A stretch of DNA of 64,000 bases, from the NCBI GenBank assembly GCA_003154195.1, contig PMCS01000025.1, forward strand, positions 16,662 to 80,661, read 5' to 3'. The stretch comes from Candidatus Omnitrophota bacterium (GTDB lineage: Bacteria; Omnitrophota; Gorgyraeia; Duberdicusellales; 4484-171). Shown piece by piece: positions 36,181 through 54,069 of this stretch. The position numbers and the translations under genes are program-made. The notes under the pieces are model-generated. The model did no database searches and was not told the DNA's origin. It worked only from the letters and a program-made list of their open reading frames with translations. Within the stretch, counting starts at the first letter, position 1. Every line of letters starts with the position of its first letter.

Positions 36181-37631
36181 AGATAAACGATAAGTTAATC
36201 CGGCCGGTGGTATTTTTTTTATTTTTAATTTTATTGTTTTTTCTTAAAAGGCCGTGCCTGAATCTTCCTGCCTTTAATGATGAATGGAATTACATCACCA
36301 GTATTTTGGCAGTCTACGACAACCACCTTAACCCTTTCGTTACCTACTGGGCTTACCACCCGCCGGTTTTTTTTGTTTTCGTCGCTTTGCTTTTCAAATT
36401 ATTCGGTTGCTCGCTTGCCGTGGGGCGCCTGGCGATAATGTTTTTTTCCCTTTCCACCCTTTACTTTACCTTTCTGCTGGGAGAAAAGTTATATAACAAA
36501 AAAACCGGTTTTTTCGCCGGCCTGTTGCTTTTTTTCTCGCCGTTTTTTTTCGCGCAATGCGGCCTTTTGTATTGCGATATGCTGGTGACAGCGCTATCGA
36601 CCGCAGCTATCTATTATTTTGTCAGCGGTAAAAGGAGAGGGTATCTCATCGCCGCGACCCTGCTTGTTTTGACTAAAGAACCGGCGATATTGACGGTCAT
36701 CGCGATCGGAATATACCAGGTTATCCTGAATTTACCGGAATTTACCGGAAAATCCCGCCGGGAAGAAGTATCGTCAAAAACAAAGAAGTTAATTTTAGAA
36801 ACATTGTTTATTCTGTCGCCGCTTTTATTTTTTTTAGTATGGATGATTCTCAACAAGCTGCTTTTGGGCTGGTTTTTTTTCCCCTTATTCACTTCGCTTC
36901 TCGAAAGGTTTTCGCTATTTCCCGATTTAATGAAATGGATTCTAAGATGGACCTTCCGGGAAGATTTCAGGATTTTTTTTACCGGCGCGGTTATTTTAGC
37001 CGCTTTTCTTTCTTTATTCAAAAAAGATATCCGGAAAGGTTTTTTAAAGAATGAACTCCTGCTTTTTGCGATATTATCTTTGATTTCGATATTATTTTTT
37101 GCCGGCATACAAGGGAAGCACTACGGATTTTCAATGCGTTATCTATTATTCCTCCAGCCGTTGTTGTTTCTGGCCGGAACCGCCGCCGTGATCCAATTGA
37201 TTAAAAATAAAATCGCGCATACTTTAGTTTTCCTATTCTCTATTTTTATTTTCATTAATTGCTGGCATTCGAGAGGTTTGCCGCAAAAAGATGATTTAAA
37301 TTTGGATTATCTTAATATCGTAAAAATTCATAAAGAAGCTGCCGGGTTTTTAGCAAAAAAATTCTCCTCCCGTTTGATTGTCGCCGCATTGCCGGTAAAT
37401 AATAACCTGACCCTGCCGGTACGGGGGTATGTCAACCGGCCACTGGCCAATGTTGTGGATGTGCCGCCGGAAACCGCCAGCCAGGGAACGATCATCGTCG
37501 TTTCGAAGTATTACCGGATTTGGACCGACCAGGCAGAAGAAGTAATAAAATTTCAACAAAAAACGAACGCGGCGCTGGTAAAAAAATTCAGCCGGGGCGA
37601 CGAAGAGATTTCGATTTATGCTCTGCCGTAA
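36177..37631 (+). CDS. GT-C glycosyltransferase, family 39/83 (ArnT/PMT_2-like)
   Basis: YWAYHPPVFF...GRLAIMFFSLSTLYFTFLLG...LLVLTKEPAIL is a PMT_2/ArnT-type N-terminal domain. There are about 11 TM segments. Confidence 0.75.
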   Translation: MKINDKLIRPVVFFLFLILLFFLKRPCLNLPAFNDEWNYITSILAVYDNHLNPFVTYWAYHPPVFFVFVALLFKLFGCSLAVGRLAIMFFSLSTLYFTFLLGEKLYNKKTGFFAGLLLFFSPFFFAQCGLLYCDMLVTALSTAAIYYFVSGKRRGYLIAATLLVLTKEPAILTVIAIGIYQVILNLPEFTGKSRREEVSSKTKKLILETLFILSPLLFFLVWMILNKLLLGWFFFPLFTSLLERFSLFPDLMKWILRWTFREDFRIFFTGAVILAAFLSLFKKDIRKGFLKNELLLFAILSLISILFFAGIQGKHYGFSMRYLLFLQPLLFLAGTAAVIQLIKNKIAHTLVFLFSIFIFINCWHSRGLPQKDDLNLDYLNIVKIHKEAAGFLAKKFSSRLIVAALPVNNNLTLPVRGYVNRPLANVVDVPPETASQGTIIVVSKYYRIWTDQAEEVIKFQQKTNAALVKKFSRGDEEISIYALP

Positions 37632-37674
37632 GCAAACATAAGGAAGCTCAATCCCGGCGATAAACCCTAAACCT

Positions 37675-38406
37675 ATGCAGGAAGCAAACAAAAACCATAA
37701 GGTCTCTCTTTTTATCCCGATCTTTAACGAAAAAGACGTCATCGAGCGGTATATCAATACGCTCCGGCATATTTTAAAAAGAATACCCCTGGCTTACGAA
37801 ATATTTATCGTCAACGACTCTTCCCGCGACAACGTGCGGCATATTTTAGAAAAAATCCACGCCTCGAACCGGGAAGTTACGCTTCTCAATTATGAAATCG
37901 GCCCTACCCGCAGGGAGAACCTCGCGCAATCTTTCCGGAAGGCAAACGGCGATATTATAGTTTTTGTGGATGTCGATCTCGCCGCCAGCCTGCGTTTTTT
38001 GCAGGATTTAATCGACCAGATAATCCTTGGTTACGATATCGCGACGGGAAGCCGTTATGTTTGTGGCGCTAAAATAAAAAGAAAACCATTCCGGCTGGTA
38101 ATAAGCATCCTGTATAATGCTTTTGTGCGAATAGTTTTTAGAACAAAAATCCGCGACCACATGTGCGGATTCAAGGCTTTTAAAAAGGGGGTGATTCTGC
38201 GGCTGGTGGATGAGATGGGTTACGATAAGACGCTTAAGCGCGGCGTGTTCTGGGATACCGAGATGTTAGTAAGGGCGATAAGGCGCGGCTATCGGATAAA
38301 AGAGATACCTATCTGGTGGAACGAGCGGAATAAAAGCAAACTTTATTTTATCAGAGAAGTCAAAGCTTTCGGTTATATTTTAAATTTTATGGCGAAGCCT
38401 CATTAA
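37675..38406 (+). CDS. GT2 polyprenyl-phosphate glycosyltransferase (DPM1/ArnC-like)
   Basis: LFIPIFNE...IFIVNDSS.D...VFVDVDLA gives the GT-A DxD motif and a DPM1-like layout. Confidence 0.8.
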   Translation: MQEANKNHKVSLFIPIFNEKDVIERYINTLRHILKRIPLAYEIFIVNDSSRDNVRHILEKIHASNREVTLLNYEIGPTRRENLAQSFRKANGDIIVFVDVDLAASLRFLQDLIDQIILGYDIATGSRYVCGAKIKRKPFRLVISILYNAFVRIVFRTKIRDHMCGFKAFKKGVILRLVDEMGYDKTLKRGVFWDTEMLVRAIRRGYRIKEIPIWWNERNKSKLYFIREVKAFGYILNFMAKPH

Positions 38407-38438
38407 TAAATAAAACTTTCTTCATCTGCCGAAGAAAA

Positions 38439-39821
38439 TTGAACCGAGGAGTTGTTTCCATGCGTATCGGCGCCCAAAAATGGCAAAAAAACTATTGGCT
38501 TTCGTTTATGGTAATAAGTTTATTTTTAACAATATATCTTATTATTATCGGTTACCCGATTATAAATTGGGATTCGCAAAGGTATTTAAGAGGGGCGCTT
38601 TTTTTCCAAACCTGCCCCTTTGCCCTGACCTCAGTCTGTTACTTGTTTCATCCGCTGGTCGCCATCACGGGAGCCTGGGGATTTGCAATTATTCAGATAA
38701 TTTTATTAGCGTATGTTACAGTATCGTCTTCGCAATTCTTTCATAAAAGTTTTATCGTGGGGCTTATCGCGATAATAATGTCCGCGGCCGCCTATTATGC
38801 TATTTCCGTGATGATGGATATTTATACCGCCGCCGGCTTATTAGTATTATTCCTCATCTTGAACGGCAACAAAAATATTTTTCTTTATATTACCTTAAGT
38901 TTATGTTTCCTGGCTCACTATGAGAACATTCCGCTGTTCCTTCTTTCCGCCGTAGCATACTGGATAATATTTCACCGGAAGAAAATTAGCTCTGCCCTGA
39001 TTTCGATAATAATAACCTTTATTATTTCCATCATAAGCGTTGTCCTAACAGGTTATTTAAAGGGGGATGATTTTATATTTTTTTCGAAAGCGCGATATGC
39101 CATGACTGTGCCGCGCCTTATGGCCGATTACCCTGACGCCGCCCGTTCCTATATGAAAAAATACCCCGATTCCTATATTGGCAAGCACAAAGAATTTTAT
39201 GAATTTGCTCTCACCGCCGGAGAACCTTCTCACGCCTTGCTTTGGGGAGACTGGCAAGGTGAAAAAGGGCTGGGCTATCAGCCCGTCGACGATAACCTTT
39301 TTAAAGAAACCAGAAGTTTTATCGTGTATGTTTTGAGCAACTACAAGCGGGAATTGCTAAAGAATACCCTGAAGAATACCTGCAGGTTTTTGCTATGGCC
39401 GGGGTACGAGCCGGGGCTGAATACCCATCGCGCAGCAATCAAACAGTGCGTAGGGGATTTACTTCCCGGCCAACTTAAAAGCGCGTTAAATTCTCTACCC
39501 TATAAATCCAACGAAGAACAATTCCCCATCCGTTTAAAAGCGCTCTATGGACTATGTTATTATGCAAGTTTCCCGGTTATTCTGCTCTTTATTTTCCTTT
39601 CTTTCATCAATCGCAAAATAAAAAATTTAGAATATTATCCATTTGTGGTTTTTGCGGCCATCGTTATACTGGTGAATGCCCTATTAATGTCTAACGTTAT
39701 CGAGACATCACTGAGATATCAACTACGGATCATGCTCCTGCCCTGCCTTGCCATGAATTTAATCGTCGCGGATTTGCTTAAACGCCATTTTGCCAATAAA
39801 GGATTTTTAAATAATGGATAA
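38439..39821 (+). CDS. Polytopic membrane protein (paralog of 34858..36180)
   Basis: 460 aa with a conserved N-terminal block and hydropathy profile. Confidence 0.5.
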   Translation: MNRGVVSMRIGAQKWQKNYWLSFMVISLFLTIYLIIIGYPIINWDSQRYLRGALFFQTCPFALTSVCYLFHPLVAITGAWGFAIIQIILLAYVTVSSSQFFHKSFIVGLIAIIMSAAAYYAISVMMDIYTAAGLLVLFLILNGNKNIFLYITLSLCFLAHYENIPLFLLSAVAYWIIFHRKKISSALISIIITFIISIISVVLTGYLKGDDFIFFSKARYAMTVPRLMADYPDAARSYMKKYPDSYIGKHKEFYEFALTAGEPSHALLWGDWQGEKGLGYQPVDDNLFKETRSFIVYVLSNYKRELLKNTLKNTCRFLLWPGYEPGLNTHRAAIKQCVGDLLPGQLKSALNSLPYKSNEEQFPIRLKALYGLCYYASFPVILLFIFLSFINRKIKNLEYYPFVVFAAIVILVNALLMSNVIETSLRYQLRIMLLPCLAMNLIVADLLKRHFANKGFLNNG

Positions 39822-40569
39822 AAAACTTATTGTTATTATTCCCGCCTTTAACGAAGAAAATTTTATCACTTCGGCGATAAAGGAAATCCCCAGAAAGATC
39901 AACGGTATCGGCAGTATCGAGGTTGTTGTCGTAAATGACGGGAGCAGTGATGGCACGGTTAAAGCGGCGCGCAACGCCGAAGCCGGTAAAATCATCGATT
40001 TGGGCGGCCATCGCGGTTTAGGCGCGGCCATTCGGGCCGGATTAAGCTATGGCGTGGATAACGACGCGGATATCATCGTTATCTTCGACGCCGATTGCCA
40101 ATATTACGGGAAGGATATCGAAAAAATAGTTGCGCCGGTTTTAGCAGGAACTGGCCAGGTTGTAATCGGCCAAAGAAATTTCAGGAAAATAAAAACTTAC
40201 CCTTTTTATATGAGATTATCGCAGCGAATCGGCAACGGGCTCACCGGATTTATTTTCGGGGCAGATGTCCAGGATATCGCTTCCAGCCTCCGCGCCTACC
40301 GCAAAGAAACCGCGAAGCTATTGCTTGAAAACCTCCACAATCCCTATGAGGAAGCAATCGAATCGGTGTGTTTTATGGCCGAAAAAAATATTCCTATCGC
40401 CTGGATACCGGTTAATATCCGCTACCCTACCCGCCCATCTCGGTTGATTACCAGCAAGTTTTATTTTGTGAAATATTTTTTTACGACCCTGGCTGATTAT
40501 TTTTTTGCTTCGCGAAAAAATAATCAGTCGGCCGCTTGCGCGGAAAGGAACAGAAAGGTTTTTCGATAG
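39814..40569 (+). CDS. GT2 polyprenyl-phosphate glycosyltransferase (DPM1/ArnC-like)
   Basis: IIPAFNEE...VVVVNDGSSDGT...IVIFDADCQY. Confidence 0.8.
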   Translation: MDKKLIVIIPAFNEENFITSAIKEIPRKINGIGSIEVVVVNDGSSDGTVKAARNAEAGKIIDLGGHRGLGAAIRAGLSYGVDNDADIIVIFDADCQYYGKDIEKIVAPVLAGTGQVVIGQRNFRKIKTYPFYMRLSQRIGNGLTGFIFGADVQDIASSLRAYRKETAKLLLENLHNPYEEAIESVCFMAEKNIPIAWIPVNIRYPTRPSRLITSKFYFVKYFFTTLADYFFASRKNNQSAACAERNRKVFR

Positions 40570-40588
40570 TTGTCCTGAATAAACCCGA

Positions 40589-41275
40589 TTATTTATCCTG
40601 GCTGTTGTATGCGCACGCCAGAAACGTCAGCGTCCGGTTTTTTGTCGCGTCACGCCGGTGCGAAGGGAAACCGCGCCGGTCACAAAAGCTGCATAAGCCA
40701 ATATCGCAAAAATTGCCTCCTTTCACCCCCCGGCGCATTAACCGGGAACGGGCAAAACCGATGGGATCAAAATAGATACAATCGTTTTCTTTCGTAAGAA
40801 AATCATCAAAACCGCGATAGGTAAGAAATTCTTCCCCCACGCGATAGCAACACTTGCGCAGCCCCACCCCGGCAACAACCTTAAATGCCGCCAAGTCGTA
40901 AGGTATATTATCCAGAATACCTTCCCTGGCCGAGCGCCATCCCATGTGTACCACCCCGGCAACTCCGGCTTTCTCGCTTACAAAAATAAGCGGCAGGCAA
41001 TCGGCGGTTTTAACAATAAGCGGATGGTTTTTATCTTTCGTAAAAAGCGCGTCTCCTTCGTAAATGCCGGGCTTTGACACCTCATAGACAATCGAAGAAT
41101 GGATTTGTTTCATATAGCTTGCTTCGCCGCCGCATCGCAAGACGGATAATACTTTCGCGATATCATCGGGAAGTTTACCTTTTATCTTTTTACCGGTAAA
41201 GCCGGCGATAAACGCGCCGGCAAAAAAATCTTCCAAAAAAAAGCAATCTTTTTTCTTAAATACCTTCAATTTCAA
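40589..41275 (-). CDS. pgeF: YfiH/PgeF family (purine nucleoside phosphorylase / peptidoglycan editing factor)
   Basis: TADCLPLIF and VHMGWRSAREGI (the HxGWRG motif) identify DUF152. Confidence 0.8.
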   Translation of the reverse strand: MKLKVFKKKDCFFLEDFFAGAFIAGFTGKKIKGKLPDDIAKVLSVLRCGGEASYMKQIHSSIVYEVSKPGIYEGDALFTKDKNHPLIVKTADCLPLIFVSEKAGVAGVVHMGWRSAREGILDNIPYDLAAFKVVAGVGLRKCCYRVGEEFLTYRGFDDFLTKENDCIYFDPIGFARSRLMRRGVKGGNFCDIGLCSFCDRRGFPSHRRDATKNRTLTFLACAYNSQDK

Positions 41276-41477
41276 CCACCTTATCCCGGTTCGTTTCTCC
41301 CCGGACTATCGTGACAGCGCTCTTTTTTACCGCAAAATAATCGGCAAGGACTTCACAAAGTTTTTTATTGGCTCTTCCCTCGATGGCGGGTTCGTTGAGA
41401 TAAACCTTTAAGTTATCGGGCAGTTTCTCGATACGTTCCTTCTTCGCGCGGGGAACTACTCTTACCTTGATACGCAT
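41256..41477 (-). CDS. YggU family protein (DUF167)
   Basis: 73 aa. VRVVPRAKKERI...NEPAIEGRANKKL...VTIVRGETNRDKVVEI matches the DUF167 pattern. Confidence 0.7.
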   Translation of the reverse strand: MRIKVRVVPRAKKERIEKLPDNLKVYLNEPAIEGRANKKLCEVLADYFAVKKSAVTIVRGETNRDKVVEIEGI

Positions 41478-41627
41478 GATATATCGTTTGGGTGGATTAC
41501 CGCCGACTTCATCGGCAGCTTCTCCTAAATGATCCCGCCAAACTGCGGCGGCCCGCCTTGATGAGCCATAAGGCCCACGGCTTCGCCGTGAGGCGAGCGA
41601 GGCAGGGATTATTTGCCCCGCATCAAT

Positions 41628-41653
41628 CCGCCGAATAAATTCGGCGGTTTTCT
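41628..41653. terminator. Hairpin plus T-tract (putative terminator)
   Basis: ccgccgaat-aa-attcggcgg followed by ttttct. It lies 30 bp 3' of the TPR gene stop. Confidence 0.4.
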
Positions 41654-41680
41654 GCGGTTCAAATAAAAATCACCGGCCGG

Positions 41681-42556
41681 TTATTTATTTAGTTTCGCCA
41701 ATATTTTCTTAGCGCGGTCTTCTAACTTTTTCGCCCGGCCTTCGTCTTCGCAATTTCGTACCACCTTTGCCGTCTTTTCCAAAACTTCGGCAACCGGTGC
41801 GCTATCTTTACCGTAAACCTTTTCGGCTATCTCCAGTATTTTTTTATAAATAAACAAAGCTTCGGAATTTTTCCCCTGCTCCGCGTATAGCCCGGCCAGG
41901 TTATGAAGGCTTAAAATCGTCTCGGAATGATTTGGGCCGAAAATTTTCTCTTTTATCTCCAGGACGCGCTTGCAATATATATCCGCTTCCATAAACCGGC
42001 GCTCAATCCGATAAAGCCCGGCTAAGCTATCAATGGTAGCGACGGTATCGGGGTGGTGAGAGCCTAACGTAGCTTCTCTTATCGTCAGGGTTTGTTTATA
42101 AAAATTCTCCGCGCTTTGGTATTCTTTCTTCGCGTCGTATAGTTTAGCTAAATTATCCAGAGGGCAAGCGGTAAAAGGGTGGATTTTACCGGCGGCACCC
42201 TCCAAGATCCCCAGCGAACGCTGGTAAAACGATTCCGCCTCGGTAAAACGGCCCTCGAAATCGTAAAGGGCGCCGAAGTTGTTAAGGATGCAGCCTTCAT
42301 CCAGCTTCCCGCTCCCGAAGCAGTTCTGCAATATAACCAGTGTTTTATTATAAAGAGTTTCGGCCTCGGAGTATACTTCCTGCGCCTCATAGAGCAAAGC
42401 GAAATTATTAAAAACCGGTACCGATTCATAACTATCCGGCCCGTATATTTTTCCGATTATCGCCAGGGATTCATTATAATACTTAGTTGCCTCATCCAGG
42501 CGCCCCTGTAGATAACAATGAATACCGAAATTGTTCAACGTCATCGTCTCGTCCAC
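41681..42556 (-). CDS. TPR-repeat protein (C-terminal 291 aa of a gene interrupted by the IS insertion; GTG start created at the junction)
   Basis: TPR_12-type repeats. Joining the flanks after removal of 42594-45102 gives a continuous reading frame with the fragment 45086..45370. Confidence 0.75.
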   Translation of the reverse strand: MDETMTLNNFGIHCYLQGRLDEATKYYNESLAIIGKIYGPDSYESVPVFNNFALLYEAQEVYSEAETLYNKTLVILQNCFGSGKLDEGCILNNFGALYDFEGRFTEAESFYQRSLGILEGAAGKIHPFTACPLDNLAKLYDAKKEYQSAENFYKQTLTIREATLGSHHPDTVATIDSLAGLYRIERRFMEADIYCKRVLEIKEKIFGPNHSETILSLHNLAGLYAEQGKNSEALFIYKKILEIAEKVYGKDSAPVAEVLEKTAKVVRNCEDEGRAKKLEDRAKKILAKLNK

Positions 42557-42611
42557 TTGGCTATACCGCTCTTCGCTGTCCGGCCTTTCTTTAGGGAATT
42601 ATATACTTAGC

Positions 42612-43310
42612 TCAACCAATGCGGTCTTTTTTGGAGTAAAGGCGGCCTATATCGTAAGGGGATACTCTAAACTTAGTGCCATGATTACGTAGCCCTTTGC
42701 TTTCTGGCTTAGCTTCTCTTACGTCAAAATCTATCTTAACCGTTCCGCGGACAACTTCATCAATGAAAGAGCTTAATTCAAGGTTTTCGTAAGAATCAGC
42801 GCGATTGTAAACAATTTTTTGCCCTGTTCTTACACCTTTTACTAAAATCAAGCGGCGTAATTTGGCTCCCGCCGAGCTCATAATATCATCATCAGTCCAA
42901 TAAGGAACCGCGCCGTTTCCGTCAAGTCGGCGAATTATTATCTGGTGAGAATCTGCTTCTACTTTGAACCTATCTGATTTGCCCGCTATGGTATGTCTAA
43001 AGCTAAGACGTCCCATATCGTCTTTCCATCCCCATTTACTAACCATAAGCCTAATAACATTATCGGGGCGTGGCTCTTTGTGGAATAGAGTAATAAGGTT
43101 TGTTTTTTCTGTATAAAATTTTAATTCCCATCCAAGAGTATCAGGAATATCTTTATTACCTGTTCTTAATCCAAGAAGGTCTTCGAGGTAAAGTCCAGGG
43201 GCCCCTGTTCCGATATATCGCTTATCGGGCATTATGTATTCTTTATGCTGAATAATTTCGGAAATTCGTGCAAACAGCTCTTTTTTTGTTGTTGGAGCTA
43301 TGATACTCAT
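42612..43310 (-). CDS. Putative type II restriction endonuclease (cargo of IS)
   Basis: 232 aa with no recognisable conserved domain. It overlaps the upstream DNA methyltransferase by 4 bp and lies inside the mobile cassette. The assignment rests on position only. Confidence 0.45.
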   Translation of the reverse strand: MSIIAPTTKKELFARISEIIQHKEYIMPDKRYIGTGAPGLYLEDLLGLRTGNKDIPDTLGWELKFYTEKTNLITLFHKEPRPDNVIRLMVSKWGWKDDMGRLSFRHTIAGKSDRFKVEADSHQIIIRRLDGNGAVPYWTDDDIMSSAGAKLRRLILVKGVRTGQKIVYNRADSYENLELSSFIDEVVRGTVKIDFDVREAKPESKGLRNHGTKFRVSPYDIGRLYSKKDRIG

Positions 43311-44122
43311 TTTTTAAGTAACCTCCCCTGGGCTTCAATGCGTTCCCTTGCTAATTTGCAATAATCTTTTGATAGTTCAAGACCTACCCAATCTCTTCCA
43401 CATACTTCGGCGGCAATAGCCGTAGTGCCCGAACCCATAAAGGGATCGAGAACAATTTTTCCCGTAGTAGACTGAATACATCTTTGCGCCAATTCAACAG
43501 GAAAGGGCGCAGGGTGAGGATTATTATTTTCTTGAGGAATAATCCACACGTCCCCCACGGCATTAGCCTTTGGCGCAAGTTTAAAATTAGGCTTGCATAT
43601 AAGATAGATAACTTCATAAGTGGGAAGAAAATACCCAGAATTAAAATTTATGCCGCCGTTACGTTTCCAAATAATGATTTGCCGAATCGGAAATCCCTGA
43701 ACAATATCATGCCGGTCTTGCATTACGCCGCCTTGAACCCGCCATTTATGATTGTAGAATATCGCTCCATCCTCCCGTAAAACTCTCATCATCGCAGTAA
43801 GGCAATTTCTTTGCCATTCAACATATTCATCGTGGGGCATATCGTCATTATGATTTTCATAACCATTTACAAGCTGAGCATTTTTCCATTTACCGCCTCG
43901 CGGGTCTTTCATTCCATTGCCGGTGCTATTCCGAAGATTATAGGGGGGGGAGGTAACAATTAAGTCTATTGACCCTGTAGGCATTTTGTTCATCAACGCA
44001 AGGCTGTCCCCACAATGAACTTTATTAAGCCATTGCTTCAAAACATTGGGAGAAATCGTCTTGGTGGCGGCTTTTAAAAGTTGGCTAAAAGTAGCAGCAA
44101 CAGAGAAAGGTTTTGTAATCAT
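43307..44122 (-). CDS. DNA methyltransferase, beta-class (N4-cytosine/N6-adenine; SPPY catalytic motif)
   Basis: DLIVTSPPYNL (motif IV) precedes DPFMGSGTTAIAA (motif I), which is the beta-class order. A poly-C8 tract encodes the S-P-P residues. Confidence 0.85.
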   Translation of the reverse strand: MITKPFSVAATFSQLLKAATKTISPNVLKQWLNKVHCGDSLALMNKMPTGSIDLIVTSPPYNLRNSTGNGMKDPRGGKWKNAQLVNGYENHNDDMPHDEYVEWQRNCLTAMMRVLREDGAIFYNHKWRVQGGVMQDRHDIVQGFPIRQIIIWKRNGGINFNSGYFLPTYEVIYLICKPNFKLAPKANAVGDVWIIPQENNNPHPAPFPVELAQRCIQSTTGKIVLDPFMGSGTTAIAAEVCGRDWVGLELSKDYCKLARERIEAQGRLLKK

Positions 44123-45030
44123 GCGATTAACCCTTTATACGATAGGCGTCTTCCTGCTACTGATTCTAACAGATAATTTAATCGTTCGCAACCTTTCATT
44201 TCGGCCATGCCAAAACGCGTTTCAAACTCTGATAAATAACGGTGCAGATGTTTCCAGCTTAAATGATGGAATGTTCCGTAATAACCACGTTTTAACAATG
44301 CCCAAAAAGATTCCATACCGTTCGTATGAGCTTGCCCGCGGACATACTCACCCATAGAATGATTAACGCTGTAATGGTTATAGTCTTTAATTCCGAGGTA
44401 AGAACGATGGTCATCTGTGTAAAGAGTTGTTCCTGTTGCAACATTTTCTTGTATAAAATTATGCAATTCATTCTTTTCAGTATTCGGAACCATCTTAATT
44501 TTAACCCTGCCAGACCTTTCACGTATTCCAGCTACAGCCTGTTTCCCTGCTGGCCCACGGCCCAAATCAGACTTTTTATTAAAATGTTTATTTTTCTCTT
44601 TACCTCCAAGATAAGTTTCGTCAGCTTCGACAGTTCCACTTAACGGGCCACCAGTTGCACCCATTCCCTCGGCTACATCACGAAGACGACCTAACATGAA
44701 CCATGCTGTTTTTTGCGTTACGCCTATTTCCCGCGCTAATTGGCAACTGCTGATACCTTTACGATTGCTGGTGATGAGCCATGCGGCAGAAAACCATTTG
44801 CGAAGCGGTAAACGGCTTTCTTCAAAAATAGTTCCCTTGCGAACGGAAAATGTCTTATTACAATCGGCGCATTTATAGACATAACACCGTTTGATATGAT
44901 GTATCTTTCGGCTGCTTCCGCAACAAGGACACACTATCCCGGTGGGCCAACGTAAACTTTCGAGGTGTTTGATGCAAGATTCTTCGGTAGGAAATTTCTT
45001 CATTAAATCGTAAAGACTATTCGCTTCCAT
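44119..45030 (-). CDS. IS1595-family (ISXO2-like) transposase
   Basis: N-terminal zinc ribbon CPCCGS...CADCNKTFS and a DDE domain. The protein is 303 aa. Its stop overlaps the methyltransferase start (ATGA). Confidence 0.85.
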   Translation of the reverse strand: MEANSLYDLMKKFPTEESCIKHLESLRWPTGIVCPCCGSSRKIHHIKRCYVYKCADCNKTFSVRKGTIFEESRLPLRKWFSAAWLITSNRKGISSCQLAREIGVTQKTAWFMLGRLRDVAEGMGATGGPLSGTVEADETYLGGKEKNKHFNKKSDLGRGPAGKQAVAGIRERSGRVKIKMVPNTEKNELHNFIQENVATGTTLYTDDHRSYLGIKDYNHYSVNHSMGEYVRGQAHTNGMESFWALLKRGYYGTFHHLSWKHLHRYLSEFETRFGMAEMKGCERLNYLLESVAGRRLSYKGLIA

Positions 45031-45085
45031 AATGGGCCTCCTTATTTACCTTACACACCCATTATACCATACCTTTATGGTTGTG

Positions 45086-45370
45086 TCAAGTATATAAGTC
45101 CCTTTCTTTAAGTATCTTTATAATTTTCATCGCTTTATCGAAAAGAGTTTCCGCCTCGGCAAACTTAGCTTGCAAATCGAAAAGAACCGCCAGATTACTG
45201 ACATAGGGCACCAACGATTGATGCATCGTGCCGTAAGTCTGTTCGGCGCCGATTAGTATTTTTTCCGCCCCTTCCAGAGCCCGGCTGTAAAAACCTTTCT
45301 GATAAAGTTCAAAAACCTTTTCATTGATACTGGTAACCGAAGGAATTAATATTTTTGAAAGTCGGGCCAT
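45086..45370 (-). pseudogene. N-terminal fragment (94 aa) of the IS-interrupted TPR gene
   Basis: TPR-like sequence that runs into the IS right end and stops. In the reconstructed pre-insertion sequence it is in frame with 41681..42556. Confidence 0.7.
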
Positions 45371-45458
45371 ATTTTTTTAATAACCAAAAAACTAAAAAAC
45401 CTAAGAACCTAAAAACAAAAAATTGGATGGCGAAAAATATTTACCGGTTTCAGGTTCT

Positions 45459-46019
45459 TCAGTTCTTTAGTTTTTCGGTTATCTTCTCAAAAATCTCTTC
45501 CGGTTCAGGCATCCGGCCGTCGCCGCACGCACCGCAGGCAAGCTCACCCTTTTCCGGCGGCATAATCATATACTTTCCTAACCGCCTTAATTTATCGGCG
45601 TTATCCTGAATAATTTTATTCTGCCACATCTTTTCATTCATCGCCGGAACCAGCAAAACATTGACCTTATCCGAGAAAGCGCAAACAACCGTCGTCAGCA
45701 GATTATCGCAGATTCCTCCGGCAATTTTAGAAAGGGTATTAGCCGTCAGCGGCGCGATAACACATAAATCCGGCCAGTCGGCAAGAGAAATATGCTCGAC
45801 GCCTTCCCGGCGGTCAAGCGAAAACATATCCGTATACACTGGATTATTTGACAATGCCTGAAAAACAAGAGGCGAAACAAATTTTGCCGCCGCTTCAGTC
45901 ATAACCACCTTCACGCTATATCCGCCTTTAACCAATAACCTTACCAATTCGCAGGTTTTATAACTGGCGATCCCGGCACACACTCCGACTAATATATTTT
46001 TTCCTTTTTTCATATACAT
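45459..46019 (-). CDS. coaC: Phosphopantothenoylcysteine decarboxylase (stand-alone CoaC flavoprotein)
   Basis: Flavoprotein domain with KNILVGVCAGIASYKTCELVRLL, corresponding to the Dfp N-terminal half. Confidence 0.8.
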   Translation of the reverse strand: MYMKKGKNILVGVCAGIASYKTCELVRLLVKGGYSVKVVMTEAAAKFVSPLVFQALSNNPVYTDMFSLDRREGVEHISLADWPDLCVIAPLTANTLSKIAGGICDNLLTTVVCAFSDKVNVLLVPAMNEKMWQNKIIQDNADKLRRLGKYMIMPPEKGELACGACGDGRMPEPEEIFEKITEKLKN

Positions 46020-46124
46020 CTCCTTCTCCCATTACTGTCGATTGATCCACAGAACATTCTTTTATTCTTTATAATAGACGCTCCGTTTATTCGTTTAATG
46101 CAAGTTTTATTAAGCCGACTAGAT

Positions 46125-47126
46125 TTAACGCGATTCCATTCGGATATCGAAAACACCGTTGATTAAGGAAATTCTCTTCTTTCGCACAATCTGATTATTT
46201 TCTTTATCCATAGTTTGGATTAATTTAATAATATCTTGATTGCCCGCCGCTTGCGCGATGTCCCGCGCATTCTTGCCATCTTTATTTTTTCGCTCCACAT
46301 CGGCTCCATTTTTTATCAAAATATCGGCAATCTCTTTTTGATTATTATGGCAAGCATACATCAGGGCTGTCCAACCGCTACTGTTTGACTCATCAAGATA
46401 TACGTGCTGATCGCTAAGAAGTAATTTCACAATATCCTCATGGCCTTCGCGAACGGCTAATGCCAACGGAGCGTTGCCGGTCATCGGATCGCCTCCCCCC
46501 TTACCTGTGCTATTGGCGCTGGCTTTATTCGCCATAAGAATTTTCACTATTTCTGTATACCCATTCTGTGCGGCAATTTGCAATGGGGTTAAAGCCGGTA
46601 TGTCTCTTCCATAAAATAAGCTCGGGTTTATGTCCGGCTTTACGCCGTTTTTCAATAGCCGTTTAACTTTTTCTAAATTATTTTGTTCTACGGCGGCTAC
46701 TAAACTACTATATAATTTTTTCGCAATATCCAATTTTGCCCTTATTAATTTTATCGCCTCATTAGGGCCGGTATTATCGGCGCCAATTGAATAATAAACA
46801 AAAGGATCACCAGCCTGGACATCGGCGCCTTTATCTAATAAATAATTAACTATATCAAGGTGCCCCGCGAAAGCGGCAGCCACTAAGGCTGTCTGGCCTT
46901 TAGAAGTAGCATAATTTACATCGGTGCCTTGCTCAACTAAAGATTTGACTTCGGCTAATTGGCCTTTTTCAGCGGGTAGTACCAGGTTATGGCGTGGCGC
47001 CTTGTCAAATAACTCGGCGTTATTTTTTTTACCATACCCCGCAGAAGGCCCACTAAGGCTAACCAAAATTATTAAGCCAAATAATTGCAAAATCTTTTTC
47101 ATTATTTTTTCCCCATCTTGCCACAA
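46125..47126 (-). CDS. Secreted ankyrin-repeat protein
   Basis: A signal peptide (probable start Met9 at 47102) and at least 5 ANK repeats (GQTALVAAAFAGHLDIVNYLLDKGADV, TPLQIAAQNGYTEIVKILM, WTALMYACHNNQKEIADILIKNGADV). Confidence 0.85.
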   Translation of the reverse strand: MWQDGEKIMKKILQLFGLIILVSLSGPSAGYGKKNNAELFDKAPRHNLVLPAEKGQLAEVKSLVEQGTDVNYATSKGQTALVAAAFAGHLDIVNYLLDKGADVQAGDPFVYYSIGADNTGPNEAIKLIRAKLDIAKKLYSSLVAAVEQNNLEKVKRLLKNGVKPDINPSLFYGRDIPALTPLQIAAQNGYTEIVKILMANKASANSTGKGGGDPMTGNAPLALAVREGHEDIVKLLLSDQHVYLDESNSSGWTALMYACHNNQKEIADILIKNGADVERKNKDGKNARDIAQAAGNQDIIKLIQTMDKENNQIVRKKRISLINGVFDIRMESR

Positions 47127-47740
47127 AATAAAATACTACGAATCTTATCCGCCAAGTCTTCCTTCGAATTTGACTCAACTATCTTCTTATACTTATCGAT
47201 CAAAAATGCCTTATATCCTTTTTTTAAATCTTCATAAGCGTTCGCCACGACCAAATCGCTTTTATTGCGCAAAAGGCTATCGTATGCTTTATCGATTAAA
47301 CCCTCGCGCCCTATCTCCAGTTTAAATTGCACAAGCTTTGCCGCCGGAACGGCCTTTCTTATTATTTTAATGATTTTTTCGGCGGGCATAAGATTTAAAC
47401 TCAAACTTTTCTTCCCCGAAGAAATCTTGCCGCCAAATGCTCTTGCCAATTTATAATCGCTTACTGCCGCGCTATGAATAACTGCGTCGTATTTTTTTCC
47501 GGCCAGCTCGCACTTCACTACCTGCTTCAGTTCGTCAAAGTAACGGAACGGAACAACTCTTATCCCCTTTTCTTTGATTTCGCCTAAAGCATGGTTATTG
47601 ACCACCAGCGTAACATCACACCCCTTATCGCGCAGCCGGCGCGCGATAAACAAACCGGTAGCGCCGGTAAAGACGGTAGTCAAAATCCTTACCTCATCGA
47701 TTTTTATCCAGGTCGGCCCGGCCGTCACTAACATTTTCAT
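47102..47740 (-). CDS. coaB: Phosphopantothenate-cysteine ligase (stand-alone CoaB)
   Basis: DFP domain with LVTAGPTWIKIDEVRILTTVFTGATGLFIA and HSAAVSDYK. Confidence 0.8.
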   Translation of the reverse strand: MKMLVTAGPTWIKIDEVRILTTVFTGATGLFIARRLRDKGCDVTLVVNNHALGEIKEKGIRVVPFRYFDELKQVVKCELAGKKYDAVIHSAAVSDYKLARAFGGKISSGKKSLSLNLMPAEKIIKIIRKAVPAAKLVQFKLEIGREGLIDKAYDSLLRNKSDLVVANAYEDLKKGYKAFLIDKYKKIVESNSKEDLADKIRSILFCGKMGKK

Positions 47741-47778
47741 AAATTATTCATTCTATGATTGAATAAAAAAATAATGTG

Positions 47779-47924
47779 GTCCACAGATTTCTCAGATTAC
47801 TCGGATTAAAAAATTATAAATAGAAAATCAAACCGTAGGACAGAATAAAGTATCGATGTTTTTTCCAACCCATTAGTTCATATTCTTTCCGCAAAATCTG
47901 TGAAAATCTGAGTAATCTGTGGAC
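47779..47924. repeat. Inverted-repeat element, family A copy 2 (MITE-like, 146 bp)
   Basis: gtccacagatttctcagattactcggatt (47779-47807) is inverted relative to aaatctgtgaaaatctgagtaatctgtggac (47894-47924). Confidence 0.75.
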
Positions 47925-47958
47925 AAAAAATCTTTTGTTTTTAACAATTTCCCCTTTC

Positions 47959-48711
47959 CTAAGGCAAGTAGTCGGTTTTAATTTTTTTCAACGCCTTGAA
48001 GATATTCCCCTTGATGTTAACTGCCGGGTTTATTTCTTCGAGTTGAGCGATGATGTCTTTCATTGTTTTACGCTTCGACTGCTTGCCGAACGGGCATTCA
48101 TAGCCGGTAACCGGCAGGTTCAATTTCGAAGCGAAATTAGCGATTGTTTTTTTCGGTACATAGCACAGCGGCCGGATTATGGTAAGCCTCCCATCGAATA
48201 AATCAATCTTCGGTTTCATCGTGCTAATCTCGCCGTGAAAACACATATTCATCAGCGTCGTTTCCACCGTATCGTCGAGATTATGCCCCAGGGCGACTTT
48301 GTTACACCCTAAATCCCGCGCCGTTTCAAAAATAATTTTCCGGCGGTTCCAGGAACACCAGAAACAGTCTATTTCCTTGTCAGACAAAGTAAGCGTTTTA
48401 ACTACGCACTCTATACCGGTATCTTTAATATAATCCAATAATGGCTTAGGGTCAATCCTGATAAAATTAGCGTCAACAAAACAAACTACAAACTGAAAAC
48501 TCTTCATGGGGATGCGCTCTTTACGCATCAGAAATAACTTTAACAACGAAAGGCTGTCCGAGCCGCCGGAAACCCCGATAAGAATCTTATCATTCTCCGC
48601 CAGCATCTGGTAATCAAAGATAGCCTTACCCATAAACTTATAGGTGTCCTTAACGACACCGCGCAAATCGATTTTATGAGTCCGGGAATAGGCGATTTCG
48701 GTTGAGTTCAT
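47959..48711 (-). CDS. ttcA: PP-loop ATPase, TtcA-like tRNA thiolation enzyme
   Basis: SGGSDS PP-loop, the ALGHNLDDTVETTLMN block, and Cys motifs (CFWCSW). Confidence 0.7.
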   Translation of the reverse strand: MNSTEIAYSRTHKIDLRGVVKDTYKFMGKAIFDYQMLAENDKILIGVSGGSDSLSLLKLFLMRKERIPMKSFQFVVCFVDANFIRIDPKPLLDYIKDTGIECVVKTLTLSDKEIDCFWCSWNRRKIIFETARDLGCNKVALGHNLDDTVETTLMNMCFHGEISTMKPKIDLFDGRLTIIRPLCYVPKKTIANFASKLNLPVTGYECPFGKQSKRKTMKDIIAQLEEINPAVNIKGNIFKALKKIKTDYLP

Positions 48712-48932
48712 AATCTTATGGTATTATAGGCAAAATACGCTATATTGCAACGAATATAAGCTTTTGCCGGAGCAGGCAACTTGGAGTATAATTTAGGCGG
48801 ATAAATTCAACAAAAAAGTGCTATTTTTTGTATGAAAACGGTTTATTTTTGTTAAAATATTTAAGGGTCACACAGAAAATACGGAGTCTGCATATTAATT
48901 GTTAGAAATAATAATAAAATTAATTAAAGATC

Positions 48933-48975
48933 TTGACAATACGTACGTTATATGGTACGTTTTATATGGAGGTGA
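48933..48975 (+). promoter_or_regulatory. Putative yefM-yoeB promoter with repeated ACGTAC operator half-sites
   Basis: TTGACA is followed by acgtacgttatatggtacgt and then the RBS GGAGGTGA 5 bp before the ATG. Confidence 0.4.
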
Positions 48976-48980
48976 TTTAA

Positions 48981-49223
48981 ATGACCACGTTAAGCGCCAC
49001 CCAAGCAAGAGGCCGACTGTATAAATTGTTAGATGCTGCCGCAATTTCCCACGAGCCTATCCAAATTACCGGCAAACGCCATAATGCTGTTTTGATTGCC
49101 GAAGACGATTGGCGTTCAATCAAAGAAACATTATATTTGCTGTCAATCCCGGGGATGAGAAGGTCTATTCAAAAAGGCCTAAAAACTCCGGTTTCAAAAT
49201 GCGCTAAGATTATCAAATGGTAA
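48981..49223 (+). CDS. yefM: YefM/Phd-family antitoxin
   Basis: 80 aa. The N-terminal ATQARGRLYKLLD...PIQIT matches the Phd/YefM fold signature. Confidence 0.85.
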   Translation: MTTLSATQARGRLYKLLDAAAISHEPIQITGKRHNAVLIAEDDWRSIKETLYLLSIPGMRRSIQKGLKTPVSKCAKIIKW

Positions 49224-49483
49224 ATTGGCAATTAGTTTATACCAAGCAAGCCCAAAAAGACGCCAAAAAGCTCTCCACTGCCGGTTTACGGCCAAAAGCG
49301 GAAGAACTTCTTTTAATCTTGCAAAAAAATCCTTTCCCAGCCCCTCCTCCGTTTGAAAAATTAGTAGGCGATTTAGCGGGAGCTTACTCGCGTAGAATAA
49401 ATATCCAGCACCGTCTTGTTTATCAGATTATCAAAGAAACACACACCATAAAAATCATAAGAATGTGGACGCATTATGAATAG
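49217..49483 (+). CDS. yoeB: YoeB/Txe-family toxin
   Basis: 88 aa carrying ...RINIQHRLVYQI...IKIIRMWTHYE, which is the YoeB C-terminus. It overlaps yefM by 7 bp. Confidence 0.85.
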   Translation: MVNWQLVYTKQAQKDAKKLSTAGLRPKAEELLLILQKNPFPAPPPFEKLVGDLAGAYSRRINIQHRLVYQIIKETHTIKIIRMWTHYE

Positions 49484-49513
49484 ATTTTCTAACCAACAAA
49501 TCCAGCCGACCTT

Positions 49514-49556
49514 GCCCGCCGCCTAATGGCGGCGAGGCGGGCGGCTGATTTTTGTG
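49514..49556 (+). terminator. Rho-independent terminator of yefM-yoeB
   Basis: gcccgccgcc-taat-ggcggcgaggcgggc followed by ggctgattttt. Confidence 0.7.
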
Positions 49557-49568
49557 TTAAAATAACTT

Positions 49569-50114
49569 ATGCCTAAAAAAATAACGAGACAACTGCTGAT
49601 ATCCGTTGTCATCGCCGTTGGCTGCGCCGGCGTAAGTTTCGCTAAAGAACCACAAATAATAAAAAAACGCCAGGCCATTGAAATACTACGTGGCAGGAGC
49701 CTGAAGCTCTGTTACCAATCCGAAGAACAAGTGCTGATTACCAACGGGATAATGCTTAACATCTATGACGAAATAGAAAGATTAAAAAACGCGGCCGGGA
49801 TATTCAATAGTTTTAGATTGGACTCCTGTATCGATAAAGACGCCGGAATACCTAAATATTGCATCTATTATACCGGTAAAGATTTTGAACTATATCTTGC
49901 GTTCGACCACTGCGGGTCCTGCTGTCACACCTTCCGTAAACCCGAATCATTATCTAACAGCTCAGGGATTACGCGCCGATACATCATTAAAAAAATTGAT
50001 TCGTGGTTAATCGTATGGGGGGATTCAAGAGATGAATCGGTAGAAAATGCTATCGCCGGGATTGCTGAAAATATCCTGCGCGAATTTAAAACAAAAATCA
50101 ATGACCCGCAATAA
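49569..50114 (+). CDS. Hypothetical secreted Cys-rich protein
   Basis: 181 aa with a signal peptide and 8 Cys. No recognisable domain. Confidence 0.4.
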   Translation: MPKKITRQLLISVVIAVGCAGVSFAKEPQIIKKRQAIEILRGRSLKLCYQSEEQVLITNGIMLNIYDEIERLKNAAGIFNSFRLDSCIDKDAGIPKYCIYYTGKDFELYLAFDHCGSCCHTFRKPESLSNSSGITRRYIIKKIDSWLIVWGDSRDESVENAIAGIAENILREFKTKINDPQ

Positions 50115-50117
50115 AAC

Positions 50118-50286
50118 GGCTAGGGTAAGGGTAAAGATGCCCGTATGGGCCATGGTTATGGTCAAGGCTTTAAATTAGTATCAGCCTTAACCTTTGCCTT
50201 AACCCAAACTGGCTTTCCGCCTTCGCTATTGCTTCGGCGAGACTTCTCCGAAGCTCGAAGAGTGAAGGAGAGCCTATCCCTAGCCC
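50118..50286. repeat. Complex inverted-repeat element, family D copy 1 (GGCTAGGGT ... ACCCTAGCC termini)
   Basis: It shares an ~85-bp block, in reverse complement, and the ggctagggtaagggtaaagatgcc module with 61848-62062. Confidence 0.75.
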
Positions 50287-50294
50287 TCACCCAA

Positions 50295-51050
50295 TTATAT
50301 TATCTCCAGCTCTTCCTTCCTGATCCACCCCAGTTTTCCGTCCAATCGCTTGACCTTAAGCCACTGGCCTTTATCTTCGACTAAAATAACTTTTTCGCCG
50401 CCGTAAATCGTAAAATGGGTGACGGCGGCGTTACCAGGCTCAAATTTAACGTTAGCCTTCTCCGCGATAATAACCGCTTCTTTGCCGAACAGTTGGGAAC
50501 GCGAAAATAAATCATAAATACCCAGGCCCATCAAAAGAAAAAGCGCGGCGGCGAGGTAAAAAAACTGTTTTTTAAAAGCCGGTAAAAATAACCGCCCGGC
50601 CAGCAACGAAAACAATAAAATATTAAGTATGGCGATAAAAATCGCCAAACCATCCGGCGCGAATGAAGCGTATAGCCAGTCGATAAACTTTTCGAGGTTA
50701 TTCTTCTCGCCGGTTTTATAGCTTTGGGTAAGCTGGCTGATAACCAATTCATGATTAGAATTCAAATCGGCGTCGGACGGCGCAAGCCGCCGGGCGCGTT
50801 CGTAAAAAAGCGCGGCCCGCGGAAAATCGCTTTTTTTATAAAAGCAATTTCCTATATTGTAATAAAGATTAGCGCTCTCATACCCTTTGCCCGCGATGTC
50901 GGAATACAACTTCAGGGCATTATCATATTTACCTTCCTCATAATAAAGATTGGCGCGATAAAACCCTGTTTTGTCTATACCGGATTGGGCATGGGCCGAC
51001 GCACATAATAAAAATACTGCGATAATTGCTGTCGGGATAAACGTCTTCAC
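50295..51050 (-). CDS. batE: BatE-like protein (TPR + TM + bacterial SH3 domain)
   Basis: TPR repeats, a TM segment, and a C-terminal SH3b domain (GQWLKVKRLDGKLGWIRKEEL). It is the last gene of the Bat operon. Confidence 0.7.
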   Translation of the reverse strand: MKTFIPTAIIAVFLLCASAHAQSGIDKTGFYRANLYYEEGKYDNALKLYSDIAGKGYESANLYYNIGNCFYKKSDFPRAALFYERARRLAPSDADLNSNHELVISQLTQSYKTGEKNNLEKFIDWLYASFAPDGLAIFIAILNILLFSLLAGRLFLPAFKKQFFYLAAALFLLMGLGIYDLFSRSQLFGKEAVIIAEKANVKFEPGNAAVTHFTIYGGEKVILVEDKGQWLKVKRLDGKLGWIRKEELEII

Positions 51051-52879: not shown

Positions 52880-52957
52880 TTTTTCGTATTTTCTTACAAC
52901 ATAAAAATTTTAGCCTTTTTTCGCGATACAAGTTTTTAAAAGGGGTAAAATTTTTAT

Positions 52958-53965
52958 TCACCAATCCTTCTGCGGCTCCGGGTATTCTCCTGTTTCCCGG
53001 GTACGGTTATCCACCGTGCCCCAATATTCTTCGTTGTCGCGATAGCCGTCTAAAAGCATACGGGCCTCCTGCTTCGACATCTCCTTGGCCGTTTCCTCAG
53101 CCGCCGGCTTTTCGGAAGTTTTATTTCCCGCGTCTTTCGTTTCTTTATTATCTTGTGCTGTCTGCTTTTTATCGGTTTCGTTATTTTTATCCTCTTCCTC
53201 GGCCTGATTTTTCTGCTCCATCGACTGACCTTTATTTTTTTGTGTTTCCTCCGGATTTTGTTTATCCGCCTTGCCGTTATTTTTTTTATCGGCCAGGTTA
53301 GGGCTTTGCTTTGGCGGCTGCCGTTTTAATCTCTTGATGAGTAATTTTAACTTTTTATCGGTTAGTTCATAATTATACCTCGCGTCTTTATCTTTAGGCG
53401 ATAATTCTATCGTTTTAGCATAATGGTTAAGCGAATCCTTCAAAAGATTAATCGCGCCGTTTATATCGGTTTTTTCTTTAGCGACGGCTGATTTAAATTT
53501 ACTGTCGGCAAGATTAAAAGCGGCTTTCGCCTCCAAACCTTTTTTATCCGTAGCCAGCACCCTGGTAAAAAACTGGGCGGCTTTTTCGTAATCGCCTTTT
53601 TTATACCATGCCGCGCCGGTATTGAAATTAACGATATCGGAAACCCCGGAATCATCACCGGCTTTCTGATATTGCCCCAGGGCATCGTCAAACTTTCCTC
53701 GCCGGTAAAATTCATTACCCTTAGCGATCGCGCCGGCCGGCGACGCGGCAAAACAATCCGCCGCGCTCAACAATATAAAGAAAAAAAATAAAGACAAAAA
53801 ATACTTTGTCCACAGATTTCGCAGATTGCTCGGATTATAGCCCGAAAAGAATAAAGAATAAATTATCCCTGCGTTGAAACGCGAAATATTTAAGTTATAG
53901 CTTTTCATAAAAGCAAGATATTTTTGGTTCATGTTTTTCCAAAAAATCTGTGACAATCTGAGCAA
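52958..53965 (-). CDS. batC: BatC-like TPR protein with Lys/Glu-rich tail
   Basis: TPR repeats plus an acidic/basic low-complexity C-terminus. The annotated N-terminus runs through repeat element A3; the true start is probably the TTG near 53804 (..SLFFFFILLSAADCFAAS signal). Confidence 0.6.
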   Translation of the reverse strand: MLRLSQIFWKNMNQKYLAFMKSYNLNISRFNAGIIYSLFFSGYNPSNLRNLWTKYFLSLFFFFILLSAADCFAASPAGAIAKGNEFYRRGKFDDALGQYQKAGDDSGVSDIVNFNTGAAWYKKGDYEKAAQFFTRVLATDKKGLEAKAAFNLADSKFKSAVAKEKTDINGAINLLKDSLNHYAKTIELSPKDKDARYNYELTDKKLKLLIKRLKRQPPKQSPNLADKKNNGKADKQNPEETQKNKGQSMEQKNQAEEEDKNNETDKKQTAQDNKETKDAGNKTSEKPAAEETAKEMSKQEARMLLDGYRDNEEYWGTVDNRTRETGEYPEPQKDW

Positions 53966-53972
53966 TCTGTCC
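53808..53972. repeat. Inverted-repeat element, family A copy 3 (165 bp) in the batB-batC spacer
   Basis: gtccacagatttcgcagattgctcggatt is inverted relative to aaatctgtgacaatctgagcaatctgtcc. Confidence 0.75.
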
Positions 53973-54069
53973 CGGTACCCTTTATAACAATATTAAGGTG
54001 CGGGACGCCCCGAACATTAATAGATTATTCAGGGTAACGGGGCTGTGGACAATATTCTTTGTTTTTTAT

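Follow-up and report, generated by a model that had tools for sequence, protein, structure and literature searches.

Organization of the Element and Its Insertion Site

We analyzed a 64,000-nucleotide (64-kb) window of contig PMCS01000025.1 (assembly GCA_003154195.1) from a Candidatus Omnitrophota genome, in which an insertion sequence (IS)-like element carries a restriction–modification (R-M) gene pair between its ends. The element is 2509 bp long and spans positions 42594–45102, as read directly from the sequence. It contains three genes, all on the minus strand: an IS1595-family transposase gene encoding 303 amino acids (aa; 44119..45030), a DNA methyltransferase (MTase) gene of 271 aa (43307..44122), and a MvaI/BcnI-family restriction endonuclease (REase) gene of 232 aa (42612..43310). 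About 96% of the element is coding sequence.

The element is bounded by a pair of terminal inverted repeats (TIRs). The distal TIR, on the plus strand at 42594..42618, has the core GGGAATTATATACTT at 42594–42608 and matches the consensus GGgaaTTATATACtTgact of the clade of related elements described below. It pairs with the transposase-proximal TIR, on the minus strand at 45078..45102, which has its core, GGGACTTATATACTT, at 45088–45102. GGGAATTATATACTT and the reverse complement of 45088–45102 agree at 14 of 15 positions, and the agreement extends to 21 of 25 over ≈25 nt. A repeat finder ranked this pair first among the inverted repeats in 42300–45400, and a degenerate form of the TIR 15-mer had exactly two exact matches in the window, corresponding to the two element ends. 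The TIRs are flanked by two identical copies of the 8-bp target-site duplication (TSD) TTTCTTTA, one at the cargo-distal end (42586..42593) and one at 45103..45110; the chance of such 8/8 identity is ≈1.5e-5 for one fixed pair of positions. An earlier, sequence-only reading of this DNA had described both the 14/15 TIRs and the 8-bp TSD, and these were re-read exactly where it had placed them; the search for further TIR copies that it proposed yielded no exact match in the window other than these two. (A third TIR-like site, at 1530–1544 on the minus strand (GGGAATTAGATACTC), has two mismatches, which is within chance expectation, and was rejected. It is located inside a 907-aa open reading frame (ORF), with no partner repeat or transposase nearby.)

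The duplicated target lies within an AT-rich stretch of a gene encoding a TPR protein, on the same strand as the element genes. The N-terminal fragment of the interrupted gene (45103..45370, minus strand) is now an ORF of 94 aa that runs 17 nt into the element, and the C-terminal fragment occupies 41681..42593 on the minus strand (TPR_12, 6e-64). Both fragments match TPR_12/TPR_10 in Pfam. Deleting 42594–45110 yields a single open 390-aa TPR frame that reads ...FDKAMKIIKILKERPDSEERYSQVDETMTLNNFG... at the junction, as the sequence-only reading had predicted. The alignment to uninterrupted TPR homologues (P0001 and P0004) runs through the junction without loss of collinearity or of the 42-residue register; given the repetitive nature of TPR proteins, this collinearity is supportive rather than proof. 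The element has one transposase gene and one pair of TIRs, the window contains no second transposase and no inner TIR, and the arrangement is not that of a compound (composite) transposon, in which the cargo lies between two IS copies.

Transposase and Cargo Genes

The transposase matches the Pfam profiles PF12760 (Zn_ribbon_IS1595; 5e-13) and PF12762 (DDE_Tnp_IS1595; 4e-42) and the NCBIfam model NF033547 (8e-58, exceeding the 75-bit cut-off). Its N-terminal zinc ribbon contains C34, C37, C54 and C57, and the DDE domain contains D137, D206, E240 and K247. All of these residues, which are at least 95% conserved over 53 clade members, are present in the window copy. The element thus has the features of the IS1595 family, namely a transposase with a zinc ribbon and a DDE domain, an 8-bp TSD (shared with 54 delimited relatives), and short TIRs beginning with GG, and the family assignment made in the sequence-only reading held up. 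Within the family, the element may belong to the ISNwi1 subgroup: GGGAATTAT fits ggnnatTAT, the end consensus of that subgroup (ISfinder), and the D-D-E-K(+7) arrangement fits the DDEK signature.

The MTase matches PF01555 (N6_N4_Mtase; 1.1e-39) and has a β-class motif order, with SPPY (motif IV) upstream of FMGSG (motif I). Its best matches in the PDB are 8s9n and 8s9m, annotated as “DNA cytosine-N4 methyltransferase” (2.5e-36), and the enzyme is probably N4-cytosine-specific. The REase matches PF15515 (MvaI_BcnI; 1.4e-24) and, in the PDB, R.MvaI (2oa9; 2.9e-10) and R.BcnI (2odh; 0.005). A candidate catalytic motif, D57-x4-E62-x-K64, aligns over the R.MvaI motif. The REase gene, including its stop codon, ends at 42612, within the extended distal repeat. 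Among annotated plasmids and phages, the best relatives of the REase have only 27–30% identity. These matches agree with the R-M cargo proposed before any database search had been made, and indicate a complete, putatively functional type II R-M gene pair of the MvaI/BcnI type. MvaI recognizes CCWGG and BcnI recognizes CCSGG, and both systems use N4-methylcytosine modification.

Gene Order and Predicted Promoter

The three genes are arranged in the order transposase, MTase, REase, and both junctions are 4-bp ATGA overlaps, in line with the overlap behind the transposase that had been noted earlier. A Shine–Dalgarno sequence, AAGGAGG (45037..45043, minus strand), is located 6 nt upstream of the transposase ATG. 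Further upstream, at 45061..45089 on the minus strand, there is an inward-facing σ70 consensus promoter (TTGACA-17 nt-TATAAT with an extended −10 TG), matching the consensus at 12 of 12 positions. Its −35 box corresponds to positions 14–19 of the transposase-proximal TIR. This arrangement recurs in the related elements: 25 of 55 have a −35 box with at least 5/6 matches at the transposase-proximal end, and 16 of those also have a −10 box with at least 5/6, while no −10 box was found at any of the distal ends of the 55 elements.

No terminator-like site was found on the gene strand from the promoter to the element end, and there is no separate control protein in the element. The most economical reading is that all three genes are transcribed as one message, with translation coupled at the ATGA overlaps. 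MTase synthesis would then precede REase synthesis and would occur at no lower level. Since the element and the TPR gene share the same orientation, read-through from a host promoter into the element, and from the element out into the 3′ TPR fragment, is also possible.

Relatives with the Same Three Genes

Genome, metagenome and viral collections were scanned with the transposase, and elements were delimited around the matches with a finder for TIRs and 8-bp TSDs, in which the duplication was required to have no more than one mismatch. In the genome and metagenome collections, 54 elements of 1374–4572 bp with similar ends (consensus GGGaaTTATATACtTgact) were delimited, a sample that is biased by having been seeded with an R-M-bearing query. 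The TSDs of 55 elements (including the one in the window) are 79% A+T, compared to a background of 45%. Only the transposase is present in seven of the 54 relatives, leaving 48 cargo-bearing elements when the window element is counted.

At least 13 loci carry a homologous unit of transposase, MTase and REase (Tnp-M-R) in the same gene order, with lengths of 2491–2565 bp. Four of these have exact TSDs of their own: a 2491-bp unit in an Acidobacteriota metagenome-assembled genome (MAG) (L018; CTTATTTA), a 2565-bp unit in a “delta proteobacterium” MAG (L019; CTAAAGAG), and units of 2531 bp (L184; AAATGTAT) and 2520 bp (L185; TTTTTTAT) on IMG/VR contigs. Further Tnp-M-R units are found on metagenome contigs (L099–L102) and on other IMG/VR contigs (L183, L186, L187 and L220). 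Among seven of the units, pairwise identities are 57–84% for Tnp, 69–90% for M and 38–78% for R. When L019 was compared to L099, the alignment was confined to the element and did not extend into the flanks. For this pair, dN/dS is 0.07 for Tnp, 0.06 for M and 0.10 for the 5′ part of R, with dS above 1 and thus near saturation; these low ratios indicate strong purifying selection on all three genes of the pair. The three genes have therefore moved and diverged jointly, as a functional unit, over a long time.

Not all copies have intact ends. L101 (7400–7542) contains a Tnp-M-R copy without a recognizable distal repeat. The 8-bp flanks of L183 agree at only 5/8 positions, and those of L186 and L187 do not match. 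These ends may represent older insertions or rearrangements between copies.

Interpretation of the Window Element

Passenger genes enclosed by one pair of TIRs, and the presence of the whole unit at unrelated sites elsewhere, are the features that distinguish a transporter IS (tIS), and, as far as sequence comparison can tell, the window element has both. We consider it likely, with a probability of roughly 0.85, that it is an autonomous 2509-bp IS1595-family tIS in a Candidatus Omnitrophota genome, with a complete type II R-M operon as integral cargo. The transposase would bind both repeats and insert the whole Tnp-M-R unit by way of an 8-bp staggered cut. The promoter embedded in the TIR and the strong ribosome-binding site would serve to transcribe the three genes as one operon, and the ATGA overlaps would couple translation from transposase to MTase to REase, so that protection is made before restriction and at least as abundantly. 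The solved members of the MvaI/BcnI family are monomers that cleave the two strands of a short pseudo-palindromic site in turn, and, by analogy, the REase may act in the same way. The terms self-addicting and defence used in the sequence-only reading draw on what is known of type II R-M systems: if the pair behaves as other such systems do, it would shield the host from phage and penalize loss of the element. Such addiction (post-segregational killing) would be compatible with the uniform presence of the element in the sampled contigs (see below). Diverged copies in other phyla and in phage-like genomes suggest that the unit is old and is mobilized in its entirety. That it recurs, between ends of the same kind, at unrelated positions in other phyla and on phage contigs strengthens the earlier proposal that the element transposes as one unit.

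We considered the possibility that the locus is instead a chance juxtaposition of a plain IS1595 element and a resident R-M operon, with a distal repeat and a duplication that are coincidental. Apart from the general point that ISs often land near R-M genes, nothing speaks for this. The distal end matches the end consensus of the whole clade, the 8-bp duplication is exact, and the TPR frame is restored by removing the whole unit, not just its transposase part. Furthermore, other taxa contain these three genes, enclosed by ends of the same kind, at sites unrelated to this one. We therefore regard a coincidental arrangement as all but refuted.

Host Population and Points Against

Every named close homologue (75–79% identity) of a conserved aminotransferase encoded in the window is from Candidatus Omnitrophota, and, judged by their names, the source samples appear to be peat or permafrost metagenomes. 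Contigs of at least 17 independent assemblies, from ENA (WOOD18 scaffolds and k141 contigs), JGI, Logan and NCBI (MAG GCA_003154645.1), contain an identical transposase and REase. Fifteen of the first 17 contigs extend to one or both ends of the element, and every one of these continues into the flank seen in the window at 99.9–100% identity. Because both junctions are thus reproduced by independent assemblers and from independent samples, the insertion is not an assembly artefact. The only deviant copy was an apparent variant with a decayed REase on a 117-kb scaffold (L001), which differs only next to runs of N that mark scaffold gaps: two of its three deviant stretches abut gaps of 10 N, there is a further run of N in the same region, and the variant as a whole was discarded as an artefact. 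That the element is an assembly chimera or a contaminating fragment is refuted by the independent assemblies.

The copy in GCA_003154645.1 (L178; PMEA01000081.1) was compared with 37500–46600 of the window. There are four real single-nucleotide polymorphisms (SNPs), all inside the element: K152N in the transposase, I146V and one synonymous change in the MTase, and Y25N in the REase. None was found in ≈6 kb of flank. The assembly could have collapsed reads from slightly different copies in the community.

Several observations weigh against an autonomous, currently mobile R-M element. The window contains only one copy of the element and no second copy of the transposase, and every population contig that reaches an element end has the insertion at the same site; there is thus no sign of ongoing transposition in this population. 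An empty site was also not found. There was no exact match in the JGI metagenome collection to a 25-mer over the predicted empty junction (...GTCCGGCCTTTCTTTAAGTATCTTTAT...), no homologue found with the reconstructed TPR protein as query exceeded 38% identity, and the contigs recovered by way of the neighboring flavoprotein gene all carry the insertion. The sequence-only reading had called the insertion unambiguous and had suggested looking for the uninterrupted TPR gene in population contigs, among which none was found. The insertion is therefore inferred from the TIRs, the TSD, restoration of the reading frame and paralogous copies, rather than from polymorphism in the population. In addition, the promoter is a consensus match, which may not reflect the promoter preferences of Omnitrophota, and the host DNA is not depleted in the candidate recognition sites, with observed/expected (O/E) ratios of 0.97 for CCWGG and 1.07 for CCSGG. 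Neither the specificity nor any long-term restriction pressure can be read from the site composition.

The single copy in the window, the identical site in at least 17 assemblies from different samples, and the failure to find either an empty or a second site among the contigs or in the 25-mer scan would also be expected if the element had reached this site by transposition and has since become an immobile resident, kept for a useful or addictive R-M system, with the transposase retained as the head of the operon. On the other hand, none of the three ORFs is disrupted, the TSD is perfect and the TIRs nearly so, every catalytic and zinc-binding residue has been retained, and related units, including their transposases, are under strong purifying selection. 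We consider present-day immobility a possibility, though the less likely one. It is compatible with an autonomous tIS as the origin of the insertion, and differs from it only with respect to present-day activity.

MvaI/BcnI enzymes share a fold with MutH, and this kinship prompts a different reading of the cargo, as a methyl-directed or nicking repair-type module without a role in defence or addiction. The low similarity to R.MvaI and R.BcnI (E-values of 2.9e-10 and 0.005) and the lack of avoidance of the candidate sites in the host would be in keeping with such a module. Against it, the Pfam match is to the restriction enzyme family itself, and the MvaI and BcnI systems show the same tight coupling of the REase gene to an MTase gene of the N4-cytosine type. 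Sister elements, moreover, hold classical R-M pairs at the same position (a C5 MTase with HaeIII, and a Dam-type MTase with a PD-(D/E)XK nuclease). A repair-type module is, in our view, improbable, and an R-M pair remains the preferred reading of the cargo.

Other sites do deviate from expectation in the host DNA (window positions 1–42593 and 45103–64000). GATC occurs 136 times compared to 286 expected (O/E 0.48), CTAG (O/E 0.25) and GGCC (O/E 0.72) are low, and CCGG is enriched (O/E 1.23). The GATC deficit might stem from another restriction system in this Omnitrophota genome. Directly upstream of the TPR gene, on the minus strand, are a DFP-domain gene (47740..47102) and the flavoprotein gene (46019..45459). 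These two halves of phosphopantothenoylcysteine synthesis/decarboxylation are separate genes here, split by a gene for a 333-aa ankyrin-repeat protein (47126..46125). The window also contains a very large ORF of 2883 aa on the minus strand (3676–12327).

Cargo and Vehicles Across the Clade

The cargo ORFs of the clade elements were scanned with Pfam and PADLOC. In at least half of the cargo-bearing elements (at least 24 of 48), the passengers include DNA methyltransferases, restriction-type nucleases or both, which fall into about ten unrelated types. In addition to the N6_N4 MTase with MvaI/BcnI seen in the window, these include a C5 MTase with HaeIII, two C5 MTases with an HNH nuclease, a C5 MTase with GIY-YIG, a Dam-type MTase with a PD-(D/E)XK nuclease, an EcoRI-like MTase with GmrSD/HNH, MTase-HNH fusions and one MTase-Mrr fusion, type IIG-like fusions, and a type II MTase/REase pair identified by PADLOC. 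Further cargo comprises SieB-like, DUF6414, IrrE-like peptidase, Bro-N and P63C proteins, and many unknowns. In a tree of the transposases, the MvaI/BcnI-type elements cluster together, and the other cargo types are interspersed with each other and with cargo-less copies. This interspersion suggests that cargo has been replaced repeatedly within the clade.

The IMG/VR copies are flanked by phage-like DNA: a gene for a portal protein (7e-70) is located 530 bp from L183, L184 is surrounded by genes for an integrase, an exonuclease and a DnaD-like loader, and a DnaB-like helicase gene adjoins L188. More distant relatives of the transposase are found on mobilizable and conjugative plasmids, with other cargo, where the annotation reads only “IS1595 family transposase”.

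Two other relatives are present in several copies. One Gammaproteobacteria MAG (CATOTD01) contains five copies (L046, L071, L075, L077 and L086) of a transposase-only relative of 1451–1457 bp, each with a different exact 8-bp duplication and with a conserved 100-aa ORF downstream of the transposase; this multicopy member of the clade was apparently active recently. A relative of 2810–2868 bp with the ends GGCAATTATATATTAA and GGCAATTATATACTAT is found on four large viral contigs in IMG/VR (L254, L256, L261 and L262), at four different AT-rich 8-bp targets.

A large clade of IS1595-family elements with GGGAATTATATACTTG-type ends may constitute a dedicated modular shuttle for R-M and other nuclease-based defence genes, a generalization to which we give about even odds. 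The space from the stop codon of the transposase gene to the distal TIR would have been repeatedly refilled with unrelated R-M modules, the cargo of some members would be expressed from the TIR promoter, and the elements would have spread between phyla partly in phage genomes. If so, these would be the smallest self-mobilizing defence elements (≈2–3 kb), in a partnership in which R-M stabilizes the IS while the IS disseminates R-M.

Comparison with Known Systems

Reviews known to us list regulators, methyltransferases and resistance genes as tIS passengers, but not R-M pairs. Larger transposons, such as Tn7-like and Tn3-family elements, and prophages carry defence cargo. The window element resembles these in being a mobile element with defence-type cargo, with relatives that are also found in phage genomes. 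Compared to Tn7-like and Tn3-family elements, it is far smaller (2.5 kb), with one transposition gene and no targeting or resolution functions, and, unlike in larger defence transposons, its cargo appears to be expressed from the transposase promoter. Like MvaI/BcnI systems (2oa9, 2odh), it combines an endonuclease with an aligned D...E-x-K motif and an SPPY β-class MTase whose closest solved relatives are N4-cytosine enzymes; its genes differ in being only distantly similar to those of the solved enzymes, co-oriented behind a transposase, and inside an IS.

According to the papers that cite it (PMC2853133, PMC7986276), the tIS of the IS1595 family were defined by Siguier, Gagnevin and Chandler in 2009 (Res Microbiol 160:232); the tIS class is also described in the TnCentral preprint (10.1101/2021.05.26.445724). 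The window element shares with IS1595 tIS the single zinc-ribbon DDE transposase, the short TIRs, the 8-bp TSD and the location of the passengers inside the TIRs. What sets it apart is its passenger, an entire type II R-M operon with translational coupling. The class as such is thus already recognized, and the window element is a clean, intact further member of it.

R-M genes bounded by inverted repeats and 8-bp duplications were described by Furuta, Abe and Kobayashi in 2010 (PMC2853133). Their unit in Neisseria gonorrhoeae, with 26-bp inverted repeats and an 8-bp duplication, contains a truncated type IIG RM gene together with an S-subunit homologue and a COG3677 transposase-like gene. A type II R-M unit in Xanthomonas oryzae has inverted repeats matching at 60/65 positions and an 8-bp duplication. 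The Neisseria transposase-like gene was a likely inactivated derivative, and what moved the unit was left unexplained; for RM or solitary M genes flanked by IS, the authors cite the IS1595 paper. The similarity to the window element lies in the R-M genes within imperfect inverted repeats and an 8-bp duplication, and, for the Neisseria unit, also in the transposase-like gene inside. The difference is that the transposase of those units is probably inactive or is absent, and the RM gene is truncated in Neisseria, whereas the window element has a transposase, MTase and REase that are all intact, that make up one operon, and that are found again elsewhere as a diverged lineage.

In the full-text literature that was searched, no IS1595 element carrying an entire R-M operon is described; neither the original IS1595 paper nor the main IS review is part of that literature, and a prior mention there is possible. 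With the same two exclusions, the clade-wide association with R-M, the promoter embedded in the repeat and the carriage by phages were undescribed in the searchable papers. The earlier remark that such elements are rarely documented therefore fits the literature searched, but the elements themselves are common in sequence data. It is the clade-wide cargo of restriction systems that appears to be poorly documented.

Implications

The movement of R-M systems between distant genomes has long been debated, and the documented cases mostly involve large vehicles or unexplained “transposon-like” units. The window element presents a minimal, clean case, with one transposase, one promoter, one R-M operon and unambiguous insertion scars, and its size of 2.5 kb makes the model directly testable. 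Annotation of such elements by the label “IS1595 family transposase” alone suggests that a common route of R-M dissemination may be hidden in existing data. For the Omnitrophota, a phylum known mainly from metagenomes, the element represents a mobile gene set that, by analogy with type II systems, would serve in defence.

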